This document shows, piece by piece, positions 32,988 to 43,231 of a stretch of 64,000 nt of DNA. The translations under genes and the position numbers were made by a program. Each line of letters starts with the position of its first letter. Position 1 is the first letter of the stretch. This DNA comes from Escherichia phage FFH2. The notes beneath the pieces were generated by a model. The model did no database searches, was not told the origin of the DNA, and saw nothing but the letters and a program-made list of their open reading frames with translations. The stretch lies in sequence record KJ190158; one strand, given 5' to 3'.

Positions 32988-33198
32988 AATGTTTTCCTCT
33001 CTTCTGGTTGTTGTGTGGGCACTTTTGCCCCTTCAAGATAAATGTTACCCCACCCCCTGGCAGATGTCAACGGTTTTTATAGTTCTTATATGACAGGCAG
33101 GCCCGGTGATTGTCTCCCCCCGTCGCCAGGTGCCTGCCGTTGAATAAGTATAACAAAAAACAGGACCATTGCAAGCCCTGTTTTCTAGTCAATAAGGA

Positions 33199-33390
33199 TT
33201 ATATTTTTTCGCCTATGTAGTCCGGTCGGTTTTTCTCTGTCATGCGCTTTAGCAATTCTTGCATGTTACTTATGGCTTGTAGTGTATCCCCTTCCAGGCT
33301 TGAATCAACATAATCAGGATCGTCTATGACCTTTCTATGATTATGATAACGCAGTACCGCTAATACCTTTCTAACTTGTTCGATATTCAT
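33199..33390 (-). CDS. hypothetical protein
   Basis: ORF only. Confidence 0.4.
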   Translation of the reverse strand: MNIEQVRKVLAVLRYHNHRKVIDDPDYVDSSLEGDTLQAISNMQELLKRMTEKNRPDYIGEKI

Positions 33391-33402
33391 TTTTACCGCT
33401 CT

Positions 33403-33537
33403 TTAAAACAAGGTGCCAACCGTTTCCAATAGATCACTGACTACCAGGACAATACTGATCAGCACATACCTAACCATAAGGGGAAAGAGCGCCAGCGATC
33501 CCGCCACAATCCCCAAGGTGATGATTATCTTTCTCAT
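33403..33537 (-). CDS. Small membrane peptide (44 aa)
   Basis: MRKIIITLGIVAGSLALFPLMVRYVLISIVLVVSDLLETVGTLF; starts 2 nt after upstream stop. Confidence 0.3.
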   Translation of the reverse strand: MRKIIITLGIVAGSLALFPLMVRYVLISIVLVVSDLLETVGTLF

Positions 33538-33539
33538 GG

Positions 33540-33824
33540 TTAACGGTTTACGTAAGCTTTACCGTTTACGGTGATGGGCAGATCTTCCAGGTCTGGATCT
33601 TCCTTAAGGTCGCGAGCAAGCTCACCGCACCGGATACCCTCGAATCCGTAGTACTCTGTCGTGCCGTCCTGGAAAGTTTTAGCGGCAAGGCATAAGCGAT
33701 AAGTAACCCCGATTTGATTGACGGCATGAATATCCGTTAGATTAACCTCTTTTGCCAGCTCTTTAGCCATTACAGGCGCATTAAGTCCAACAACCAGGGC
33801 AACCACTGCGATCATCTTTTTCAT
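33540..33824 (-). CDS. Small secreted/periplasmic protein
   Basis: N-terminal MKKMIAVVALVVGLNAPVMA resembles Sec signal peptide. Confidence 0.5.
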   Translation of the reverse strand: MKKMIAVVALVVGLNAPVMAKELAKEVNLTDIHAVNQIGVTYRLCLAAKTFQDGTTEYYGFEGIRCGELARDLKEDPDLEDLPITVNGKAYVNR

Positions 33825-33915
33825 TGTGTCTATCCTCTTTCTGCTACGTTTAAGGCGGCGGTAACCGCCTGTTTATGCTTTGTTGGTTAATTTTCGGGTA
33901 TCGGTATAAATTAAA

Positions 33916-34131
33916 CTATGCTGTACGCTCAACTATAACAACGGTTTGGGGGATCTCCCCTTCCACCACTAGTAAGGCCTTTTTCTGCGTGATAGATATC
34001 TTTACCCGTTGCAGCGTGGCGGTGAAGTCTTTCATTTCGTCACGTGGTGTTTTAGTGCAATGCCAGATTTCAGGCTTGCCGATCTGTAAGTTGCGTAAAA
34101 ATTCTGTTTTTCCTGTTTTGTTAGTGATCAT
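33916..34131 (-). CDS. hypothetical protein
   Basis: ORF only. Confidence 0.4.
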   Translation of the reverse strand: MITNKTGKTEFLRNLQIGKPEIWHCTKTPRDEMKDFTATLQRVKISITQKKALLVVEGEIPQTVVIVERTA

Positions 34132-34140
34132 TTGTCAACC

Positions 34141-34245
34141 TCACCCGATACCGTTGGAAGACAAGATCACATTAGCCATGGTTGCAATCAGGCCAATACC
34201 TAAGGCAATAACCAGGATCACAGCATCAATTAATTTTTGTTTCAT
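34141..34245 (-). CDS. Small membrane peptide (34 aa)
   Basis: MKQKLIDAVILVIALGIGLIATMANVILSSNGIG. Confidence 0.3.
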   Translation of the reverse strand: MKQKLIDAVILVIALGIGLIATMANVILSSNGIG

Positions 34246-34322
34246 GGTGTTTATTCTCTTCTGTTAGTAACCTTATTCATGGGGCCGTAGCAGCGGCCCC
34301 AGGGTAAGGCGGCTATATGCTT

Positions 34323-34568
34323 TTAGTGTTTCATTCCAACCATCGCGGCACGGATCGCCGTAGTGCTGTACTTGAAGCCGTCCGGGGTCTTATCTTGTCC
34401 GGTTAGCTCCAGAAAAAGCATCATATCCCGCGCCGCATCATTACGATTAGCATTGGCGTTAATAAAGCCTTGGGCCAACCGGTACAATGACTCATCGTTA
34501 TTAATCCAAAGGCTTACATTCCAATGAGTTTTGTTTTTGTAACCGTTATAACCTTTATTGCTTTTCAT
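34323..34568 (-). CDS. hypothetical protein
   Basis: RBS aagaggtaaac. Confidence 0.45.
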   Translation of the reverse strand: MKSNKGYNGYKNKTHWNVSLWINNDESLYRLAQGFINANANRNDAARDMMLFLELTGQDKTPDGFKYSTTAIRAAMVGMKH

Positions 34569-34659
34569 GGTGTTTACCTCTTCTTTGTTCCAGGTGGCGG
34601 ATCATTCTACCACCTTATGTATTATGCTTTGTTAGATGGTTGTTTGTTGTCAAACTATT

Positions 34660-34839
34660 TTAACGATAATCATCATATGCTTTATTGACCTGGCGAATAT
34701 AACATTCAAAAGCTAGATCAATAGATTTATATTCACGGATATATTCACCGTAGGAAACCACATACATTTCTATAGCTTCCTCATATGCGAGTAGAATAGA
34801 ATCTAAGCCTACGATCTCAGTCTTTGCAATAATAGCCAT
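34660..34839 (-). CDS. hypothetical small protein (59 aa)
   Basis: ATG after aaagagga RBS; below ORF-track cutoff. Confidence 0.4.
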   Translation of the reverse strand: MAIIAKTEIVGLDSILLAYEEAIEMYVVSYGEYIREYKSIDLAFECYIRQVNKAYDDYR

Positions 34840-34914
34840 GATTTTTATCCTCTTTGTGGTTGGTGGGGCTTGTTGCCCCCTTTGATTTATATATTACAGT
34901 CTTATATGGTCATG

Positions 34915-35148
34915 TCAACTATTTTCAAAAAATTTTTCTGCTGTGATATTCTTCCCGGTAGGGTTCGCTACTTTCAAAATTTTATCATGCACTGGACGCC
35001 CAAAAGAATAAGCGCCGTACACAGTAAACCAATAATCGCCGTCAGGTTGTACTATTACCGCCGCATATGGTACGCCTTTTTCGTTTTTGCTGACAAAATA
35101 GATCACATTGCCATTAATAGCCTCAGCGCGTTTAATTTGTTCCATCAT
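34915..35148 (-). CDS. hypothetical protein
   Basis: RBS aagagagg. Confidence 0.45.
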   Translation of the reverse strand: MMEQIKRAEAINGNVIYFVSKNEKGVPYAAVIVQPDGDYWFTVYGAYSFGRPVHDKILKVANPTGKNITAEKFFENS

Positions 35149-35202
35149 GATGATTTACCTCTCTTTATTTTCATAATTGGGGCCTTTTCGGCCCCGCCAG
35201 GT

Positions 35203-35487
35203 TTATTTATTGATAGCGTGCAGTGGGAAAGGTACGCCAGGTTGATAAATAACCTTTACAACCTCATCAGGACAAAAGAAGTTGCAGAACTCACCGCAAT
35301 ATGCCTCATCCTCTTTCAACTCTTCATCAACATACTCAAAAAAGTAGTCGATGCTTGGATAATCCTGGCCGGGATTATAGTCAACCATCGTTAATAATAA
35401 CTCTTGATCATTCCGTAGGATGTGCATACCCGCTTTTAAGTATTTTGCTTCCATTTCTACTACATCGCCAGCGGTAACAATAGCCAT
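35203..35487 (-). CDS. hypothetical acidic Cys-containing protein
   Basis: ORF with RBS. Confidence 0.45.
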   Translation of the reverse strand: MAIVTAGDVVEMEAKYLKAGMHILRNDQELLLTMVDYNPGQDYPSIDYFFEYVDEELKEDEAYCGEFCNFFCPDEVVKVIYQPGVPFPLHAINK

Positions 35488-35689
35488 GATTTTAACTCCT
35501 ATCTATCTGGTCAACGATTGGGGGCCTCCCCCTCGACAACTCTTATTATCCATATTGTCGGGAATGATGCAAGTACTTCTTTAAAAATTTTTTAAGCGCC
35601 CCGTATGCCGTTGTAACGCCAAAATAATAAAGGCCATGCGGTTGCATGGCCTTTATGTGATTATATTGCTGCAGGCCCTGCTAGGGGCC

Positions 35690-36040
35690 TTATTTTGCAT
35701 TCTTGCCTGTATTGCCGCCACGGTACCAGCGTCTGCGGTGAAAATGGTAATAATCACCCTCGGCATTAAACATCAGATGATTTTCAATAACCAGCTTACG
35801 AAGGTAGGCCGGATCTTGTTCCATTCTTGCCAGATTCCAGCGGCTGTTACGTAAGCGTATAAATTCCATATTCAGGCCGTTGATTGCAGTATGGATGTCA
35901 AAGTAACCACCTTTGAGACGTTCACGCATGGCGTTAAGCTCAACACAATATACAGATTTCTCACAAATCAAGGTATTAGCTATGGCGCGGACCTGGGCAA
36001 GGGGGTTAAGCTCATTAAGGTAATATAGTTTTATTTTCAT
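35690..36040 (-). CDS. hypothetical protein
   Basis: ORF with RBS caggtg. Confidence 0.45.
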   Translation of the reverse strand: MKIKLYYLNELNPLAQVRAIANTLICEKSVYCVELNAMRERLKGGYFDIHTAINGLNMEFIRLRNSRWNLARMEQDPAYLRKLVIENHLMFNAEGDYYHFHRRRWYRGGNTGKNAK

Positions 36041-36057
36041 AAAATCACCTGCTGAAA

Positions 36058-36366
36058 TTAGTTTGAGAAAACATCGTTCACAATAGCGATCACAATGCCG
36101 CCCACCTTGTCACGGTCAACAACGCACAAATCACCATAGATCATGCGGTAGTCTGGATGATCTTTCACAGAATAGTCAATAAGTGTTTTCTTGTCGTCCA
36201 GCTTCGTAACTTCCATTCTCATAACGATATGAGAATCATCAAAGGCATTATTCCGAAAAGTCATAGCCTGACCGCCAGGGCACCCGGTGATCTCCACTTC
36301 CACACCATCTACGATCTGACCATCAAAGAAATAAAGATTATTAGCCTGGATAAACATGTCTATCAC
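36058..36366 (-). CDS. hypothetical protein
   Basis: RBS aaggagtg; conserved 45-bp element upstream. Confidence 0.45.
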   Translation of the reverse strand: MIDMFIQANNLYFFDGQIVDGVEVEITGCPGGQAMTFRNNAFDDSHIVMRMEVTKLDDKKTLIDYSVKDHPDYRMIYGDLCVVDRDKVGGIVIAIVNDVFSN

Positions 36367-36450
36367 TCCTTGTTAACTGCGTGGTCTTTTAACAGGGTTT
36401 AAATTTACTTTATTGATGGCCCTGAAGTCAAGGCCATCTAAAAATAAATT

Positions 36451-36651
36451 TTACAGGCCTACAATCTCTTTGATTCGTTTAACCGCCGCCTCAGCGCCTT
36501 GGGGGTAAAAATTATGGTAACCAATCACGCGAGTGATACTAATCGCCGTTTGATGATCTTCATAGTCGCCCTTGAAGATTTCTTGACCGTCAATCAGCAC
36601 GGCAATTTTTTCTTCTTTTTTGAAGTTAATAACGCGGATATTGTTGCTCAT
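36451..36651 (-). CDS. hypothetical protein
   Basis: RBS aaaggagaaac. Confidence 0.45.
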   Translation of the reverse strand: MSNNIRVINFKKEEKIAVLIDGQEIFKGDYEDHQTAISITRVIGYHNFYPQGAEAAVKRIKEIVGL

Positions 36652-36930
36652 TTTTGTTTCTCCTTTCTGGTTTTTGTGTTGGTGGGGATGTTTCCCCGTT
36701 GATTGTTATTATCCATATTGCGGACCAGATTGCAACACCCTGGAAGAAAAATTTTTTGAAAAAGTTAAGCCCCCATGATCGGGGGCGTTATCAGTTACTT
36801 ATAGCAATAAAGTACATTCCTACCCCTAACAATATTTCAAGGGCGATGATCTCAAGCCATACCATAACACGGCGCACCTTATCAGCGCATGGCTTATCCT
36901 TGGTTGTCATCGTCTCCCCCTTCCCTCCTG

Positions 36931-37152
36931 TTAGTAGTGACGTGGTTTACAATGGCCCCCAGGAGTCCTATCACCACGCACACCACAAGAAAAATTATCT
37001 CCGCTGTTGTTCGATCCATTGTTATAAAATTCCTCAAGATCAGGCCTGAAAATAAAGCGTTCGTTATTGAATCCGTCACGCCAGGCGGCTGGCTTCAAAT
37101 CTTCACTAAAGGGATTAATTAACGTGACGTTATTTAAACGGCTGGTCCACAT
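36931..37152 (-). CDS. hypothetical protein
   Basis: ATG 37152 after gagagga; alternative overlapping frame 36894-37016 encodes a TM peptide. Confidence 0.35.
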   Translation of the reverse strand: MWTSRLNNVTLINPFSEDLKPAAWRDGFNNERFIFRPDLEEFYNNGSNNSGDNFSCGVRGDRTPGGHCKPRHY

Positions 37153-37503
37153 ATTTTCTATTCCTCTCAAATAGGCGATCCGCCTCAGTTAAACATATCT
37201 CATGGGCTTGGTCTCTGGTTTTAGCCTCATCAAAAACCTGTTGTGCCAGGCTGCAGCGTAGGGAGACTGGAAGATCACTATAATAGGCGTTGACAAACGT
37301 TTGTGCGTCATACAGGTCGGAAAACACTTTACCCTTTCTATTATCGCCCTTGTCAACAATTGCAAGGATAACCAATACAATAGTTGCAACCACTCCCAGG
37401 AAAATAGATATAACAAACCATAGAAAAGCGGATCTACCTATCTTGCCAGCGATCCAGGCGTTGAACAAGGCAACTACTACAGCCAAAATAATAAATTCCA
37501 TTC
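37130..37503 (-). CDS. Membrane protein (2 predicted TM)
   Basis: ATG 37503 after aaagagg; hydrophobic N-terminal half. Confidence 0.45.
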
Positions 37504-37565
37504 TATGTACCTCTTTTGCAGTTCTGTTTAACAATAAGGCGGCAAATATGCCGCCTGTTACCTGA

Positions 37566-37946
37566 TTAAAAATTATCGCCGTAAATCTTTCCGCTTTCTG
37601 CCCACACCACCACGCGGGGCATGTTATCCCATACATCTTGTTTCAGATTTAACGCGTGCAATTCTTCGGTGGTGCTCATACCAGGCACGGGCTGATTGTA
37701 TACTGCAAAACGACCACCTGCATAATCATAGGCCAGGGTTAAATCACACTGAATCATCTTTTTGATCATGGCGTTGAGCATAGCGTTAGCCGCATACTGG
37801 TCACGTTTTAAAGGCAACTCTTTGATTAGTTTGCGATAGTTTTCAATGTGATCGCACACTGTTTCACGTGGAAGATCTTTCATATCCTCGCGAAAGGTAA
37901 CCAGGTTAAACATAACGGTGTCAATAGCTTTAGTAGTGTTTTTCAT
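37566..37946 (-). CDS. hypothetical protein
   Basis: RBS aagaggaaaac. Confidence 0.5.
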   Translation of the reverse strand: MKNTTKAIDTVMFNLVTFREDMKDLPRETVCDHIENYRKLIKELPLKRDQYAANAMLNAMIKKMIQCDLTLAYDYAGGRFAVYNQPVPGMSTTEELHALNLKQDVWDNMPRVVVWAESGKIYGDNF

Positions 37947-38035
37947 AATGTTTTCCTCTTTGTTTTGTGTGGGGCAAACGTCTTGCCCCCTTGAGTTTTA
38001 ATATAGCAGGTTTTTAGATTATTGCAACACTTTAT

Positions 38036-38659
38036 TTATGAAAAACTCATCTCTCCATATTCATCTACATCAAACCGCCAATCATTGGCCTCAATAAGGC
38101 CGATCAGGTTTTCGGTAGTGAACTGCTCTAGATAGGCCTCCTCCAGGTCTACGTAAACCTTGCGGGATAGCTCCCGTACCGTCTCGGTGATCAGCTCTTC
38201 CAGGTCTTCCACTTTGTTTTCTTGTTTGGCGGTCAGATCTAGCCAGGTGGTATCAATGTATCCGCTTACAGTGTTTTCATGGCTGTAATGGCTGTACTTG
38301 TCGCGTTCAATACTGGCTGATAACTCGCCATCGTGCATTGTGCCGAACAAGTGACGAATTGATCGGAACTTGGTCAGGGCCTTTACTTTACGCAAGAATT
38401 TTTCTAAATCCACGTTTTCAGCACTGATTGACGCGCCGTCACCCTGGCACCAAAAGCCGGACCAATGTACATCGGTATCTTCAAGGCCGTACTCTGGAAA
38501 AACTTGTTCTTTATAATATTCAATTACACTTTCTGCGAAAAAATCCTCTCCGCTGTGTTCTTCTCTTTCGCGGACCATTTCAATAGCTTTTTCTTTTTGT
38601 TCGTCGGTCAGCACGTCGAAAGATAAATTGCAACCTGTGGTAATGTTAACGGTGGTCAT
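38036..38659 (-). CDS. hypothetical strongly acidic protein (207 aa)
   Basis: RBS aggagaaaat; very high Asp/Glu content. Confidence 0.5.
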   Translation of the reverse strand: MTTVNITTGCNLSFDVLTDEQKEKAIEMVREREEHSGEDFFAESVIEYYKEQVFPEYGLEDTDVHWSGFWCQGDGASISAENVDLEKFLRKVKALTKFRSIRHLFGTMHDGELSASIERDKYSHYSHENTVSGYIDTTWLDLTAKQENKVEDLEELITETVRELSRKVYVDLEEAYLEQFTTENLIGLIEANDWRFDVDEYGEMSFS

Positions 38660-38733
38660 GATATTTTCTCCTGTTTTCTTTGTTAGTGGCGGGAAGTTTT
38701 CCCGCCTGTGTGTTTAATTATACTTATTGAGAT

Positions 38734-38994
38734 TTACTTGTCAACACTATTTTTTAAATTATTGTGGCGCAAAATGTTTAAAATCTCTTCAACGTCATCA
38801 ACACGGCGGCAATTTTTAAACGCTACCAATTGCCCCATGATTTTAATCACTGGGCGGCCTTGCCAGTGCCCCTGGAGAAAGCGCGCCTTGACTTTATCGG
38901 TGGGACTATCACGCCACCAAATGGCCTTGTTATTGCAGTAGTAAAAATTATTCAGGACAATATCAACTTTATCAAAATTTTTTAATTTACGCAT
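38734..38994 (-). CDS. hypothetical basic protein
   Basis: RBS aaggagtaaac. Confidence 0.45.
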   Translation of the reverse strand: MRKLKNFDKVDIVLNNFYYCNNKAIWWRDSPTDKVKARFLQGHWQGRPVIKIMGQLVAFKNCRRVDDVEEILNILRHNNLKNSVDK

Positions 38995-39239
38995 AGTGTT
39001 TACTCCTTCCTTCTTGCTTTGATGTGGTTAGTATATCCGGACTATTCCAAGGTGTCAAGCTTTAAATAAAATCACTGTCAATGATATTTTTAACACCATA
39101 AAACGGCCCTAGGCGATGTTTTCAGGTTAATAAAGGGGATTGCATAGGTAGGGGCTTTTGTGGCGTTTGTGGGGCCAACCAGGGGCGCTATTCGTAGGAT
39201 AGAAATAAAAAGCCCCGCACAATGGCGGGGCGTTGGTTG

Positions 39240-39437
39240 CTATTTGTCTTTGTGGCGGTATCGTTCCGCCTGTCGTTCACGTTCCAAAAGCAGGCCCGGT
39301 AATTTGCGATCATAGTGATTTCTCCAGATCTTCCCGAACCTTTTCGGTTTATTCAGTTTATTGTTACGCTGGCGGCGTTCCGGCAGCTCTTCGGAATCGT
39401 GGGGGCGCTTTACAATTTTTTCGAAATTAATTTTCAT
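39240..39437 (-). CDS. hypothetical basic protein
   Basis: ATG 39437 after aagggggcg. Confidence 0.4.
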   Translation of the reverse strand: MKINFEKIVKRPHDSEELPERRQRNNKLNKPKRFGKIWRNHYDRKLPGLLLERERQAERYRHKDK

Positions 39438-39780
39438 AAACGCCCCCTTTACTGATCTCAATATTTGCCTGAATCGCCCGGATACGACGTTTTATAGTCT
39501 CCTGATCCTTGCAATCATATCCCCAAAAGTCTACGATTTTTGCGCCGCCAGCCTTTAAGCGGTATAATGTTTCTTGCATCTTGTAAGCTGGGATCGGTCT
39601 CGGTGTTACCTGGTCCCCTTTCCCATCCTTGTACTTGATAATGTAGTCTTCGTTGTCGTTGAATACCCAAAATGGGTATTCTGTAAGCGCGTTGCTCTCT
39701 TTTTCGTTTTTGGATTGGATCTTGTTTACAATTAAAGCCGTAGCAATAGCGCCAATAATAAAACTTGCCCCGCTGATCAT
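39427..39780 (-). CDS. hypothetical protein with N-terminal TM helix
   Basis: ATG 39780 after aaaggagaaag. Confidence 0.45.
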   Translation of the reverse strand: MISGASFIIGAIATALIVNKIQSKNEKESNALTEYPFWVFNDNEDYIIKYKDGKGDQVTPRPIPAYKMQETLYRLKAGGAKIVDFWGYDCKDQETIKRRIRAIQANIEISKGGVYEN

Positions 39781-39856
39781 GTTACTTTCTCCTTTCATTG
39801 TGCTGATAAACTATCTTTATAGATGGCCCTGCCACCAGGACCACCGAAAAAACAGT

Positions 39857-40102
39857 TTATTTGACGATACCGACAAAACAGATCCCGCCTTCCCCTATAT
39901 AGGCAATATCGGTAATTTTATAATTTGTCAAGATCCGCGTGTTCAGATCATTAATAAAATCGGTCATCGCGTTGGTGTAGTTGTCTTCCGTGTCTAAGGC
40001 ATAATCCCAGGTGTAAACCTTTTTACGTCCGAAGCCTTTTACCATGATACGGGCGCTTTTGGTGTTGGTAGGGGCATAATATTTGGTAATTAGTGCGGCC
40101 AT
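39857..40102 (-). CDS. hypothetical protein
   Basis: RBS agaggag. Confidence 0.45.
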   Translation of the reverse strand: MAALITKYYAPTNTKSARIMVKGFGRKKVYTWDYALDTEDNYTNAMTDFINDLNTRILTNYKITDIAYIGEGGICFVGIVK

Positions 40103-40191
40103 TGTTTTAACTCCTCTATATTAGTTCAGTGTTAACAGTGTAAAGTTTACTTTATTGATGGCCCTGGAGTCAAGGCCATCTAAAAATAAAT

Positions 40192-40533
40192 TTACTCGTT
40201 TTCTTCCAGTTCTGCAAGCTCTTCTTTCACTTCTTCAAGCTCTGTCTGTAATTCTTGGTATTCTTCATCGTCCTCAATATCCAGGCTGTCGATGTAGTCG
40301 CTAAATCCGCAGCGGTAAGCGATAGGATCTAGCTCCTTGAGGATACGCGACGGAAGAAAAGAAATGTTTCCGATCATAATTTCGCCGTAGATCTCGTCTA
40401 ACCATTCATCATAGTTTTCGTCGTACTTGTCCTCGTCGATTTCAAAGTTATCGATCTTATTCTCAAGGTCTGCGATCTGTTTTTTCAGCGCGGCGATCTG
40501 CATGGCTTTTTCTGCGGCGGTCATAGTAGTCAT
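40192..40533 (-). CDS. hypothetical acidic coiled-coil protein
   Basis: RBS aaaggagaaaac. Confidence 0.45.
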   Translation of the reverse strand: MTTMTAAEKAMQIAALKKQIADLENKIDNFEIDEDKYDENYDEWLDEIYGEIMIGNISFLPSRILKELDPIAYRCGFSDYIDSLDIEDDEEYQELQTELEEVKEELAELEENE

Positions 40534-40611
40534 GGTGTTTTCTCCTTTTGTGTGTTCTGGGAAGTTTTCCCGTTTATGTGTTTAGTATACTGATCTAAGT
40601 TAGCTTGTCAA

Positions 40612-40731
40612 TTAAAAGTTTAAGAAAAATTTTGCGATACCGTTGGCGCTACCCATCAACATTTGCGCCAGGATGTAACCAATGATGCAAACGATAATAG
40701 TTACCTTTGTGTGCTGGCGTGTAGTACTCAT
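40612..40731 (-). CDS. Small membrane peptide (39 aa)
   Basis: Strong RBS aaaaggagg; MSTTRQHTKVTIIVCIIGYILAQMLMGSANGIAKFFLNF. Confidence 0.4.
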   Translation of the reverse strand: MSTTRQHTKVTIIVCIIGYILAQMLMGSANGIAKFFLNF

Positions 40732-40810
40732 CTTCAAGCCTCCTTTTAGCTTAACTGGGATTAGTTTACTTTATTGATGGCCCTGGCGTCAAGACCATCT
40801 AAAAATAAAC

Positions 40811-41206
40811 TTAGTAAGTTTTCAGTACTTTCCCGTCCAATCTGTCAAGCTGGATCTCGATAGCTGCAGAAAACCTATTATAAACCACATCGCCCATGGA
40901 GTCCAGCCAATCTATGACGTTATACACCTGCTCTTTATTCTTGCAAGTCCGGATCCGTTTCATTACGTAAGACGGATCAATATTAGTGCTCTCGTTGTTG
41001 TGGTCATGCGCCTGGCCTGCTGCATTAGTTATAGATTTTACAACCACCTGAAAGGGCTTTAAGGTGCCTTTTGCGTTCATCTCACGCGCTTTTGCGGCGC
41101 GGTTGTTATATGTTACACAACGGCGGCAAATGTTGACCAAATGCATATCAATAATTTTTTCATCGTTTGCCAGTTCGTTCATGATGCGGCGTACGTTCTT
41201 ATTCAT
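40811..41206 (-). CDS. hypothetical protein
   Basis: RBS aaaggaaaaag. Confidence 0.45.
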   Translation of the reverse strand: MNKNVRRIMNELANDEKIIDMHLVNICRRCVTYNNRAAKAREMNAKGTLKPFQVVVKSITNAAGQAHDHNNESTNIDPSYVMKRIRTCKNKEQVYNVIDWLDSMGDVVYNRFSAAIEIQLDRLDGKVLKTY

Positions 41207-41292
41207 GATCTTTTTCCTTTGTGTTGGCGGGAAACATTCCCGCCTTTTGTGCCCAGTTTACTTTAATTTTGCAGCGTGTCAATAATTTTTTT

Positions 41293-42610: not shown

Positions 42611-42627
42611 GAGAATGATTATCATTC
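42611..42627. promoter_or_regulatory. Fur-box-like site
   Basis: gagaatgattatcattc / rc gaatgataatcattctc matches Fur consensus at about 15 of 16. Confidence 0.4.
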
Positions 42628-43231
42628 AAAATTCTAAATGAGAACTCCTCGCATTTAATAAATTTAATTAGCACGCTAATTACACTCCGTAACAATTTAC
42701 TATAAAATAGTATCCACTAAAATATTCCCATATAGAAATTTTAAAAATCCATTTCTGAAAACGAAAAATCGATTTCGTCCCTAAAAATTTCAGGCCTAGA
42801 TCCGGAACGATTTCCAGAAAATCCGATTCAGAAAACGAAAAACAGATCGAGTACTGAGAAATTTATCGAGAAAAATTTTCAGAAAATCCAAGCCCTGAAA
42901 TGAAAAGTAGATCGAGTACCTGGAAAGCTGCACCGCAACTTCAAGATAGTGGTTAGATTGTTACCATAGAAGGTCAAGGGTAAGTGGAGGAAGTTCTAGT
43001 AGAGGGAGGTTAGCATGTGTGGGAAATCTATAATGGTGGCCTGGAATATAGTGCAAACGATAGGATGAGTTATTCAGCTTGTCGCGCCTACTCTGAAAAA
43101 TCCATTTTAGTTTTCGATCCATTTTCTGATTTTCTAAGAATTTTAAAATATCCGGCCCGGTGAAATATCAAAAGGAGGAAATCCATTTTAGAAATCCCCC
43201 TTATACTTGATATGCCAGGAATTTTCAAGTA

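Follow-up and report, generated by a model that had tools for sequence, protein, structure and literature searches.

The sequence examined here, referred to below as the window, is a stretch of 64,000 nucleotides from Escherichia phage FFH2 (record KJ190158). Between 35.5 and 42 kb the minus strand carries every gene, and all of the products are small hypothetical proteins. The spacers between these genes contain a repeated element, which is the subject of this analysis. Its four copies are, in order of position, E1, E4, E2, and E3, all on the minus strand.

E1 (36401-36451) lies between a gene of 66 codons (36451-36651) and one of 99 codons (36058-36357). The diverged copy E4 (39808-39858) separates an 81-codon gene from a 117-codon gene that starts at 39780. 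E2 (40143-40193) is flanked by a 113-codon gene (40192-40533) and an 81-codon gene (39857-40102), and E3 (40762-40812) by a 131-codon gene (40811-41206) and a 39-codon gene (40612-40731). Each copy occupies the spacer that separates the stop codon of a leftward gene from the ribosome-binding site of the gene after it; a first-pass annotation of this DNA, made by a model from the letters alone, had placed the three copies it saw between leftward small genes. The copies start 0-2 nucleotides (nt) from the upstream stop codon and end 20-45 nt before the next ribosome-binding site.

The eight genes that flank the element belong to eight different PHROG families with unassigned function. Gene duplication thus does not account for the repetition of the element. 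The small genes are mosaic: a tblastn search with two of the flanking proteins found homologues in unrelated phages, and the same search found no distant syntenic locus yielding a copy of the element.

The first-pass annotation defined the element as a degenerate 45-mer present three times. This 45-mer has exactly three matches in the window, all on the plus strand, at 36404-36448, 40146-40190, and 40765-40809. These are within 1 nt of the coordinates first reported, and 100 dinucleotide-preserving shuffles gave 0 matches. A repeat search extends the unit to 63 nt (36390-36452, 40132-40194, and 40751-40813). The three copies do form a near-identical set; what had been overlooked is E4, which occupies 39797-39859 as a 63-nt unit with 62% identity (39811-39855 for the part corresponding to the 45-mer). 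A covariance model of the element family detected no copies in the window beyond E1-E4.

The element is characteristic of one group of phages. A search with a 5.2-kb region gave 121 phage records with identities of 90-97%, led by phage A6-1 at 96.5%. Apart from mislabelled entries, all of these belong to Vequintavirus, the rV5-like myoviruses of E. coli, and so does the phage of the window. A blastn search with the 63-mer found 119 phage records, mostly with three copies apiece, and all but one were Vequintavirus. There are three to four copies per genome, within 4.4 kb. No match was found in 5,426 complete E. coli genomes, so the element is not a host repeat of the repetitive extragenic palindromic (REP) or bacterial interspersed mosaic element type. 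The sole match labelled as a plasmid is the 137.5-kb E. coli record CP057073.1, which has all three copies and is apparently a misfiled rV5-like phage genome. A scan of viral contigs that specified nothing but the AT-rich flanks returned almost nothing except chance matches, and two rV5-like contigs from it were usable.

Mislabelling also affects the public records numbered MG0656xx. Seventeen of them are named “Campylobacter phage”, at least one being flagged UNVERIFIED, and they are Vequintavirus genomes with 94-95% identity to the window.

The messenger-strand hairpin

Read in the sense of the mRNA, that is, on the minus strand, the element has the form UUUAUUUU-UA-GAUGGCCUUG-ACNN-CAGGGCCAUC-AAU-AAAGUAAA. 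The four copies share one fold. It consists of an A/U-rich lower stem of 10 base pairs (bp), a 2x3 internal loop, an upper stem of 10 bp, and a tetraloop, and the lower stem begins inside the stop codon of the upstream gene. The GATGGCC/GGCCATC hairpin that had been noted before is real. It is merely the core of this larger structure, however, since the flanks TTTACTTT and AAAATAAA also pair with each other, which makes the entire 45-mer an interrupted inverted repeat.

Minimum-energy and centroid folds agree in all four copies. The free energies on the minus strand, with the covariance-model scores in bits, are -23.6 kcal/mol for E1 (z score -6.1; 79.3 bits), -24.3 for E2 (z -6.95; 80.1 bits), -22.3 for E3 (z -6.2; 76.4 bits), and -28.2 for E4 (z -7.7; 66.1 bits). 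The plus-strand folds of the same copies reach -9.7 to -16.9 kcal/mol, with z scores of -0.4 to -3.9.

The third near-identical copy, E3, had been thought to carry substitutions that break the stem. This is true for Watson-Crick pairs on the plus strand only. The change of GGCCATC to GACCATC turns a C-G pair into a U.G wobble on the mRNA strand (a C-to-U change there), and the fold of E3 is identical to that of the other copies. It had been argued in turn that a broken stem with a preserved sequence points to a protein-binding or promoter site. The premise of that argument fails, as the stem is kept in all copies and relatives by G.U wobbles and compensatory changes.

Evidence for conservation of the fold was drawn from 39 distinct 51-nt variants of the element, collected from 18 sources (the window, 15 phage isolates, and two contigs of the IMG/VR database). 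Standard pairs form in 99.1% of the stem cells on the sense strand. The value is 86.3% on the antisense strand, and it drops to 38-57% when the 3' partners are slid by one to three columns. The sense fold is the more stable one in all 39 variants, with a mean of -23.0 kcal/mol compared with -14.2.

The substitutions themselves follow the same pattern. In the lower stem, three pairs have changed on both sides (UA/CG/UG; UA/AU/GC/GU; AU/UA), and in the upper stem each one-sided change is a G.U wobble on the sense strand. Overall, G.U occurs on the mRNA strand at seven pair positions and C.A at one. RNAalifold arrives independently at this structure, with the lower stem lengthened to 10 bp and with GC/AU/GU as a fourth covarying pair. 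E4 has lost TTGAC and retains the full architecture with a GNNG tetraloop. Among the E4 lineages, one pair is found as A-U, G.U, and G-C, and another as U-A, U.G, and C-G. Such a series reads as the classic compensatory route via a wobble intermediate.

Taken as far as a comparison of sequences can go, these patterns show that selection maintains the sense-strand fold. By the same measure the RNA hairpin is the most strongly conserved feature of the element, and a promoter would be at best a second, weak function, because the stem is kept in every copy and relative and E4 folds without TTGAC.

Promoter-like sequences and cassette exchange

The minus strand of E1-E3 also reads as TTGAC(T/G), 18 nt, and TAAA(C/T)T, with TTTATTTTTA ahead of the hexamers and directly upstream of the upper stem. 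E1 has TTGACT and TAAATT (36402-36431), E2 has TTGACT and TAAACT (40144-40173), and E3 has TTGACG and TAAACT (40763-40792). Each of these pairs of sigma-70-like hexamers, with its 18-nt spacing, matches the consensus at 9 of 12 positions. The TTGAC(T/G) had been placed correctly on the minus strand by the first-pass annotation, and it spans the top of the upper stem together with the tetraloop.

Three observations lift the promoter match above chance. TTGAC is retained in 29 of the 31 main-type variants, even though its A and C are loop bases; the two loop positions that follow are free to vary. The element has as its 3' half AATAAAGTAAAYT, which ordinary promoters carry unchanged as spacer and -10 region; the 13-nt run A(A/T)TAAAGTAAA(C/T)T does not vary among E1-E3, the promoter at 41282-41255 of the window (P194 of rV5), and a promoter of the phi92-like phage PD114. 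Finally, in phage KKE7M a copy of the element occupies the exact place of the PD114 promoter TTGCAA-16-TAAACT, in register with the same hairpin in the 5' untranslated region (5'UTR) and the same ribosome-binding site. The earlier suggestion of a promoter element is supported by the hexamers, the AT-rich upstream stretch, and the 13-nt promoter identity. It is weakened by the score of 9/12 and by the absence of TTGAC from E4.

Further promoters lie upstream of the genes that precede the copies, all on the minus strand. A strong sigma-70 promoter at 40584-40611 (TTGACA-16-TATACT) feeds the 113-codon gene, with read-through into E2, and corresponds to P192 of rV5 (Table S4, PMC3606486). The promoter at 41255-41282 (TTGACA-16-TAAACT) feeds the 131-codon gene and E3, and has AATTAAAGTAAACT in common with the 3' half of the element. 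A promoter-like site at 36708-36735 (TTGCAA-16-GATAAT) feeds the 66-codon gene and E1.

A site for Dcm/EcoRII (CCWGG) is found directly after the -35-like hexamer in every copy of the element (40161-40165, 39828-39832, and the equivalents). The corresponding promoter of PD114 has one in its spacer as well (TTGCAA-ACCTGG; L135, at about 1312). This may be a coincidence.

The copies of the element coincide with the ends of segments that differ between phages. An example is the segment between E2 and E3 (40191-40762, minus strand), which contains the 113-codon gene with its promoter and 5'UTR hairpin, and the 39-codon gene. It is missing in at least five isolates (ECP32, ECP26, phiWec189, ime, and magaca) and in one IMG/VR contig. 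In ECP32, phiWec189, magaca, and the IMG/VR contig L055, the alignment stops at about 40190-40203 and restarts at 40763. The short form has a single chimeric element, with its upstream flank from E3 and its downstream flank from E2. A search with this junction recovered the short form as a continuous match from ECP32, ECP26, phiWec189, and ime, and the long form, split into two matches some 800 bp apart, from most of the others.

An example of exchange over a greater distance is the cassette at 40146-40612 (minus strand), consisting of the promoter, the 5'UTR hairpin, the 113-codon gene, and E2. It shares 95.9% nucleotide identity with KKE7M, a phi92-like Justusliebigvirus of the Stephanstirmvirinae, a different subfamily from that of the window phage. 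Judged against its relative PD114, KKE7M (L103) has had the segment 8012-8447 replaced. At one end of this segment the zone of overlap is 21 nt of a TTGACA promoter, covering the -35 hexamer and spacer; at the other it is AATAAAGTAAA, 11 nt belonging to the element. Both KKE7M crossovers thus fall in promoter-like sequence.

Other segments are shared by the window and KKE7M at 77-94% identity (33918-34196, 34494-34585, 34658-34851, and 37580-37913 in the window). These segments indicate that cassettes of small early genes have probably been swapped repeatedly between the two subfamilies.

Within single genomes, copies of the element have rare variants in common, for instance GAU in E1 and E3 of PDX. 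This suggests gene conversion between the copies. The elements are not used by every rearrangement, since two deletions in the rV5 derivative rV5_ev146 (L099), corresponding to 33112-39289 (about 6.2 kb) and 40720-41212 (about 0.5 kb) of the window, end outside them. These deletions remove E1, E3, and the 131-codon gene, and the deleted genes and the two elements appear to be dispensable for propagation. The genome comparisons nevertheless show the element to be a junction at which cassettes have been lost, gained, and exchanged. The first-pass annotation did not mention this role, and its interpretation is in sum partly supported.

Possible functions of the element

The best-matching precedent is the promoter-early stem-loop (PeSL) of T4-type phages. 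PeSLs are repeated intergenic motifs that combine an AT-rich stretch, sigma-70 hexamers, and a stem-loop; they sit between ORFans and bound indels between close relatives (PMC2839356, PMC4122927). Their subclasses include stem-loops over the -35 box (PMC2839356). On balance, the element described here is probably a PeSL-like composite, a stem-loop and promoter junction in the early region of an rV5-like phage, and this reading is held with moderate confidence. It describes a PeSL-like element in a new phage lineage, and is neither a new mechanism nor a new kind of system.

In this model, leftward transcription would be driven by the strong sigma-70 promoters upstream, and each copy could fold in the mRNA into a two-part hairpin of 20 bp. 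The hairpin would mark the 3' end of the message of the upstream cistron and so punctuate read-through transcripts. It might act as an obstacle to 3' exonucleases, as a processing site for RNase III like those of T7, or as an attenuator of read-through; a role in RNA, whether processing, stabilisation, or attenuation, is what we infer from the predicted fold. In the DNA of E1-E3, the AT-rich stretch, the TTGACN at the top of the hairpin, and the TAAAYT 18 bp downstream would form a weak sigma-70 promoter. That this promoter re-initiates transcription for the downstream gene is a moderately supported suggestion. Since a near-identical stretch of 50-63 bp recurs between unrelated genes, homologous recombination takes place at the copies. 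Through it, cassettes are deleted, inserted, and swapped, both within the genus and across phage subfamilies.

The likeness to PeSLs has several parts. The element is repeated between small genes of unassigned function in a plastic early region, and its stable stem-loop encloses a -35-like hexamer. It contains an AT-rich stretch and weakly matching hexamers of sigma-70 type, a Shine-Dalgarno sequence and then a start codon follow it, and the junctions of indels and replacements between relatives fall within it. Four of the five sequence-level features of PeSLs are therefore present. On the fifth, the promoter hexamers score 9/12 in E1-E3, and E4 has none.

There are also differences. The hexamers of published PeSLs are close to consensus (PMC2839356), whereas those of the element score 9/12 with an 18-bp spacer, and E4 is without any promoter. 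The stem is a bipartite 20-bp hairpin with an internal loop rather than a terminator-like stem of polyG/polyC. PeSLs are characterised in addition by measured promoter and terminator activity and by mini-circles formed through recombination, for which the element is a candidate. It is found in Vequintavirus, with an exchange to Justusliebigvirus, and it has no sequence similarity to PeSLs. In the literature searched, PeSLs are reported for T4-like phages only. As Vequintavirus lies outside that scope, the element would work like a PeSL without being a member of the group by descent.

Several points weigh against the composite reading. The hexamers are weak, with a sub-optimal 18-bp spacer, compared with 11-12 of 12 matches for the obvious promoters of the region, and about 13 matches of 9/12 quality are expected by chance in a 6.5-kb stretch. 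The TTG of the -35 hexamer and most of the -10 hexamer double as stem positions, so that structure alone could explain part of their conservation. E4 is without a credible -35. In the rV5 genome paper the element appears among neither the promoters nor the terminators (PMC3606486), and a literature search for transcriptomes or 5'-end maps of Vequintavirus found none. The element has three to four copies per genome, compared with many PeSLs in T4-type phages. The covariation was measured among closely related genomes and owes much to the difference between E4 and the main-type copies, and the same sequences served both to derive the structure and to count its pairs. Lastly, the terminator activity of one PeSL stem-loop cannot be assumed for an element without a U-tract.

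An alternative explanation is that the element acts in RNA only. It would then be a T7-like RNase III signal or a barrier to 3' exonucleases in a polycistronic early mRNA, and the hexamers would be unused relics of the promoter that gave rise to the element. This is a possibility to be taken seriously, if a lesser one. For comparison, the early T7 sites R0.3, R0.5, R1, R1.1, and R1.3 were folded at their known intergenic positions, as the T7 record does not annotate RNase III sites. In the T7 sites, an A/U-rich lower stem and an asymmetric internal loop lie below an upper stem of 9-10 bp that ends in a tetraloop. They have primary sequence in common, and R0.5 starts at the stop codon of gene 0.4. 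The architecture of the element fits this pattern, including a G.U wobble in the upper stem. Like the T7 sites, the element lies in the intergenic spacers of a presumed early polycistronic transcript, abuts the upstream stop codon, and occurs in several copies with a common sequence; some T7 sites likewise adjoin promoters.

At 10 + 10 bp, or about two helical turns, the element agrees with the RNase III requirement of about 20-22 bp, and internal loops lead to a single cleavage that leaves protective 3' hairpins (PMC3867540, PMC1540722). The U-A and U.G pairs that adjoin the loop-closing pair match the canonical distal box. E4 folds without a -35, and the asymmetry between the strands likewise favours a role in RNA. 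On the other hand, the element has no sequence similarity to the T7 consensus (CUCAAGGUC...GUGGCCUUUAUGAU), its internal loop is smaller (2x3 nt), and its lower stem is longer (10 bp). Next to the internal loop there is a G-C pair, which could suppress cleavage if the register is as in R1.1 (PMC3867540, PMC1540722). What a purely RNA-based function leaves unexplained is the conservation of the loop A and C of TTGAC and the exact equivalence of the KKE7M element with the PD114 promoter.

The hairpin could also be a weak intrinsic terminator or attenuator that lowers the expression of the downstream gene, which we consider unlikely. The stable, G+C-containing hairpin directly after a stop codon resembles intrinsic terminators and REP sequences, the record of phage Murica has E1 and E4 down as terminators of 45 nt on the strand of the genes, UUU follows E1 and E4, and a PeSL stem-loop lowered the expression of a downstream reporter (PMC2839356). 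By the criterion of at least five U in the eight nucleotides directly after a G+C-rich stem, however, no U-tract follows the hairpin on either strand. The tails are A-rich after the upper stem (AAUAAAGUAAA) and read CUUUAC, CUAAUC, UUUAAA, and UUUAUC after the full stem. A terminator scan of the region lists 15 other terminator-like sites and none of the copies, and the record of phage HdK5 annotates five other terminators here and none at the elements. Strong termination would moreover silence the downstream genes, which have no other promoter. The element is not a simple intrinsic terminator, in agreement with the first-pass annotation, and REP sequences are set apart from it by its absence from the 5,426 E. 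coli genomes.

A DNA operator is highly unlikely. Here a dimeric protein of the phage or the host would bind GATGGCC-N10-GGCCATC, over the -35, and so switch the promoter. The palindrome does overlap the promoter-like site, its arms are conserved around a variable centre, and symmetric half-sites could covary too. Yet the bias towards G.U is not expected from a site in double-stranded DNA, E4 differs in one arm only with pairing kept, and the conserved fold takes in the A/U-rich outer arms as well as the asymmetric 2x3 loop; no candidate for the binding protein came to light. The same strand asymmetry of G.U pairs places the operator, a cruciform, and a DNA hairpin promoter of N4 type low among the candidates. 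The most improbable explanation is that of a functionless repeat, left over from past duplication or recombination and homogenised by gene conversion. It would account for three to four copies confined to 4.4 kb and for the signs of conversion between them. Against this, the element is retained in 119 records, and its substitutions spare the sense-strand fold and include compensatory changes in the E4 lineages.

Matches to known RNAs were also considered. Rfam 15 gave no family at the gathering threshold; the only overlap, seen with a permissive cut-off, was with the rhtB small RNA, at 23.5 bits compared with a threshold of 55 (E = 1.5). The sequence GCCCUGAAG of the lambda nutL boxB occurs in E1 on the plus strand, which is the wrong strand, and the boxB stem is unable to form.

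The PeSL-like reading can be extended in a more speculative direction, which remains rather doubtful. The bipartite hairpin might be a dedicated site for host RNase III or for a phage factor that binds or cleaves RNA. With a 5'UTR hairpin of a promoter module at one end and this hairpin at the other, a gene would form a self-contained mRNA cassette (5' hairpin, gene, 3' hairpin), and such cassettes would be the physical units of exchange between unrelated myoviruses of E. coli, such as Vequintavirinae and Stephanstirmvirinae.

The rV5-like phages are in wide use as candidates for biocontrol and therapy, and the block of small genes that makes up their early region is unannotated. The element, together with the promoter/5'UTR-hairpin modules described below, gives this region a grammar, with likely sites of transcript punctuation and of gene swapping. 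It carries the PeSL idea, that of a regulatory motif doubling as a recombination site, beyond the T4-type phages, and it comes with one concrete transfer across subfamilies whose crossovers lie in promoter-like sequences. It also provides a compact RNA structure with covariation support as a candidate RNase III site. The annotation is corrected at the same time, since the element is called a terminator in one record and is unannotated in the other records inspected.

Neighbouring modules and other sequences

A second repeated module is found on the minus strand at 38744-38657, 41282-41204, 40611-40531, 36735-36649, and 38027-37944. It consists, in order, of an AT-rich stretch, a near-consensus sigma-70 promoter, a G+C-rich hairpin in the 5'UTR (for example GGCGGGAAAACTTCCCGCC), ACACAAA-GGAG, and ATG. 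The hairpin lies about 10 nt past the -10 hexamer and is present at five of the seven promoters examined. These modules look like more classical modules of PeSL type, and one of them took part in the KKE7M crossover.

A scan for the upper stem found an identical 10-bp stem in about 22 related IMG/VR contigs (L110-L133) that resemble temperate phages of Pseudomonas. Homology with the element was rejected and the resemblance taken as one of chance, because about two chance matches are estimated for that collection and the contigs represent one independent family. The Pseudomonas hairpin, GATGGCCTTG-NNNN-CAGGGCCATC (for instance at 3986-4009 of L133 and 4950-4973 of L120), has GNRA-like loops and the flanks TTTCCTC and CGGGAAA. 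It follows by about 20 nt a conserved non-coding block of about 150 nt that most of the listed isolate records leave unannotated, and it lies just upstream of variable genes, for instance those for an HNH endonuclease or a CsrA-like protein. It looks like an undescribed conserved leader.

To the right of the element-bearing region, positions 42626-43231 form a stretch of about 600 bp without open reading frames. It contains three diverged copies of an A-rich repeat of 62 nt (42726-42926, with spacings of 74 and 65 nt). The stretch is conserved yet divergent in relatives, and it may correspond to the “non-coding” box of the rV5 map.

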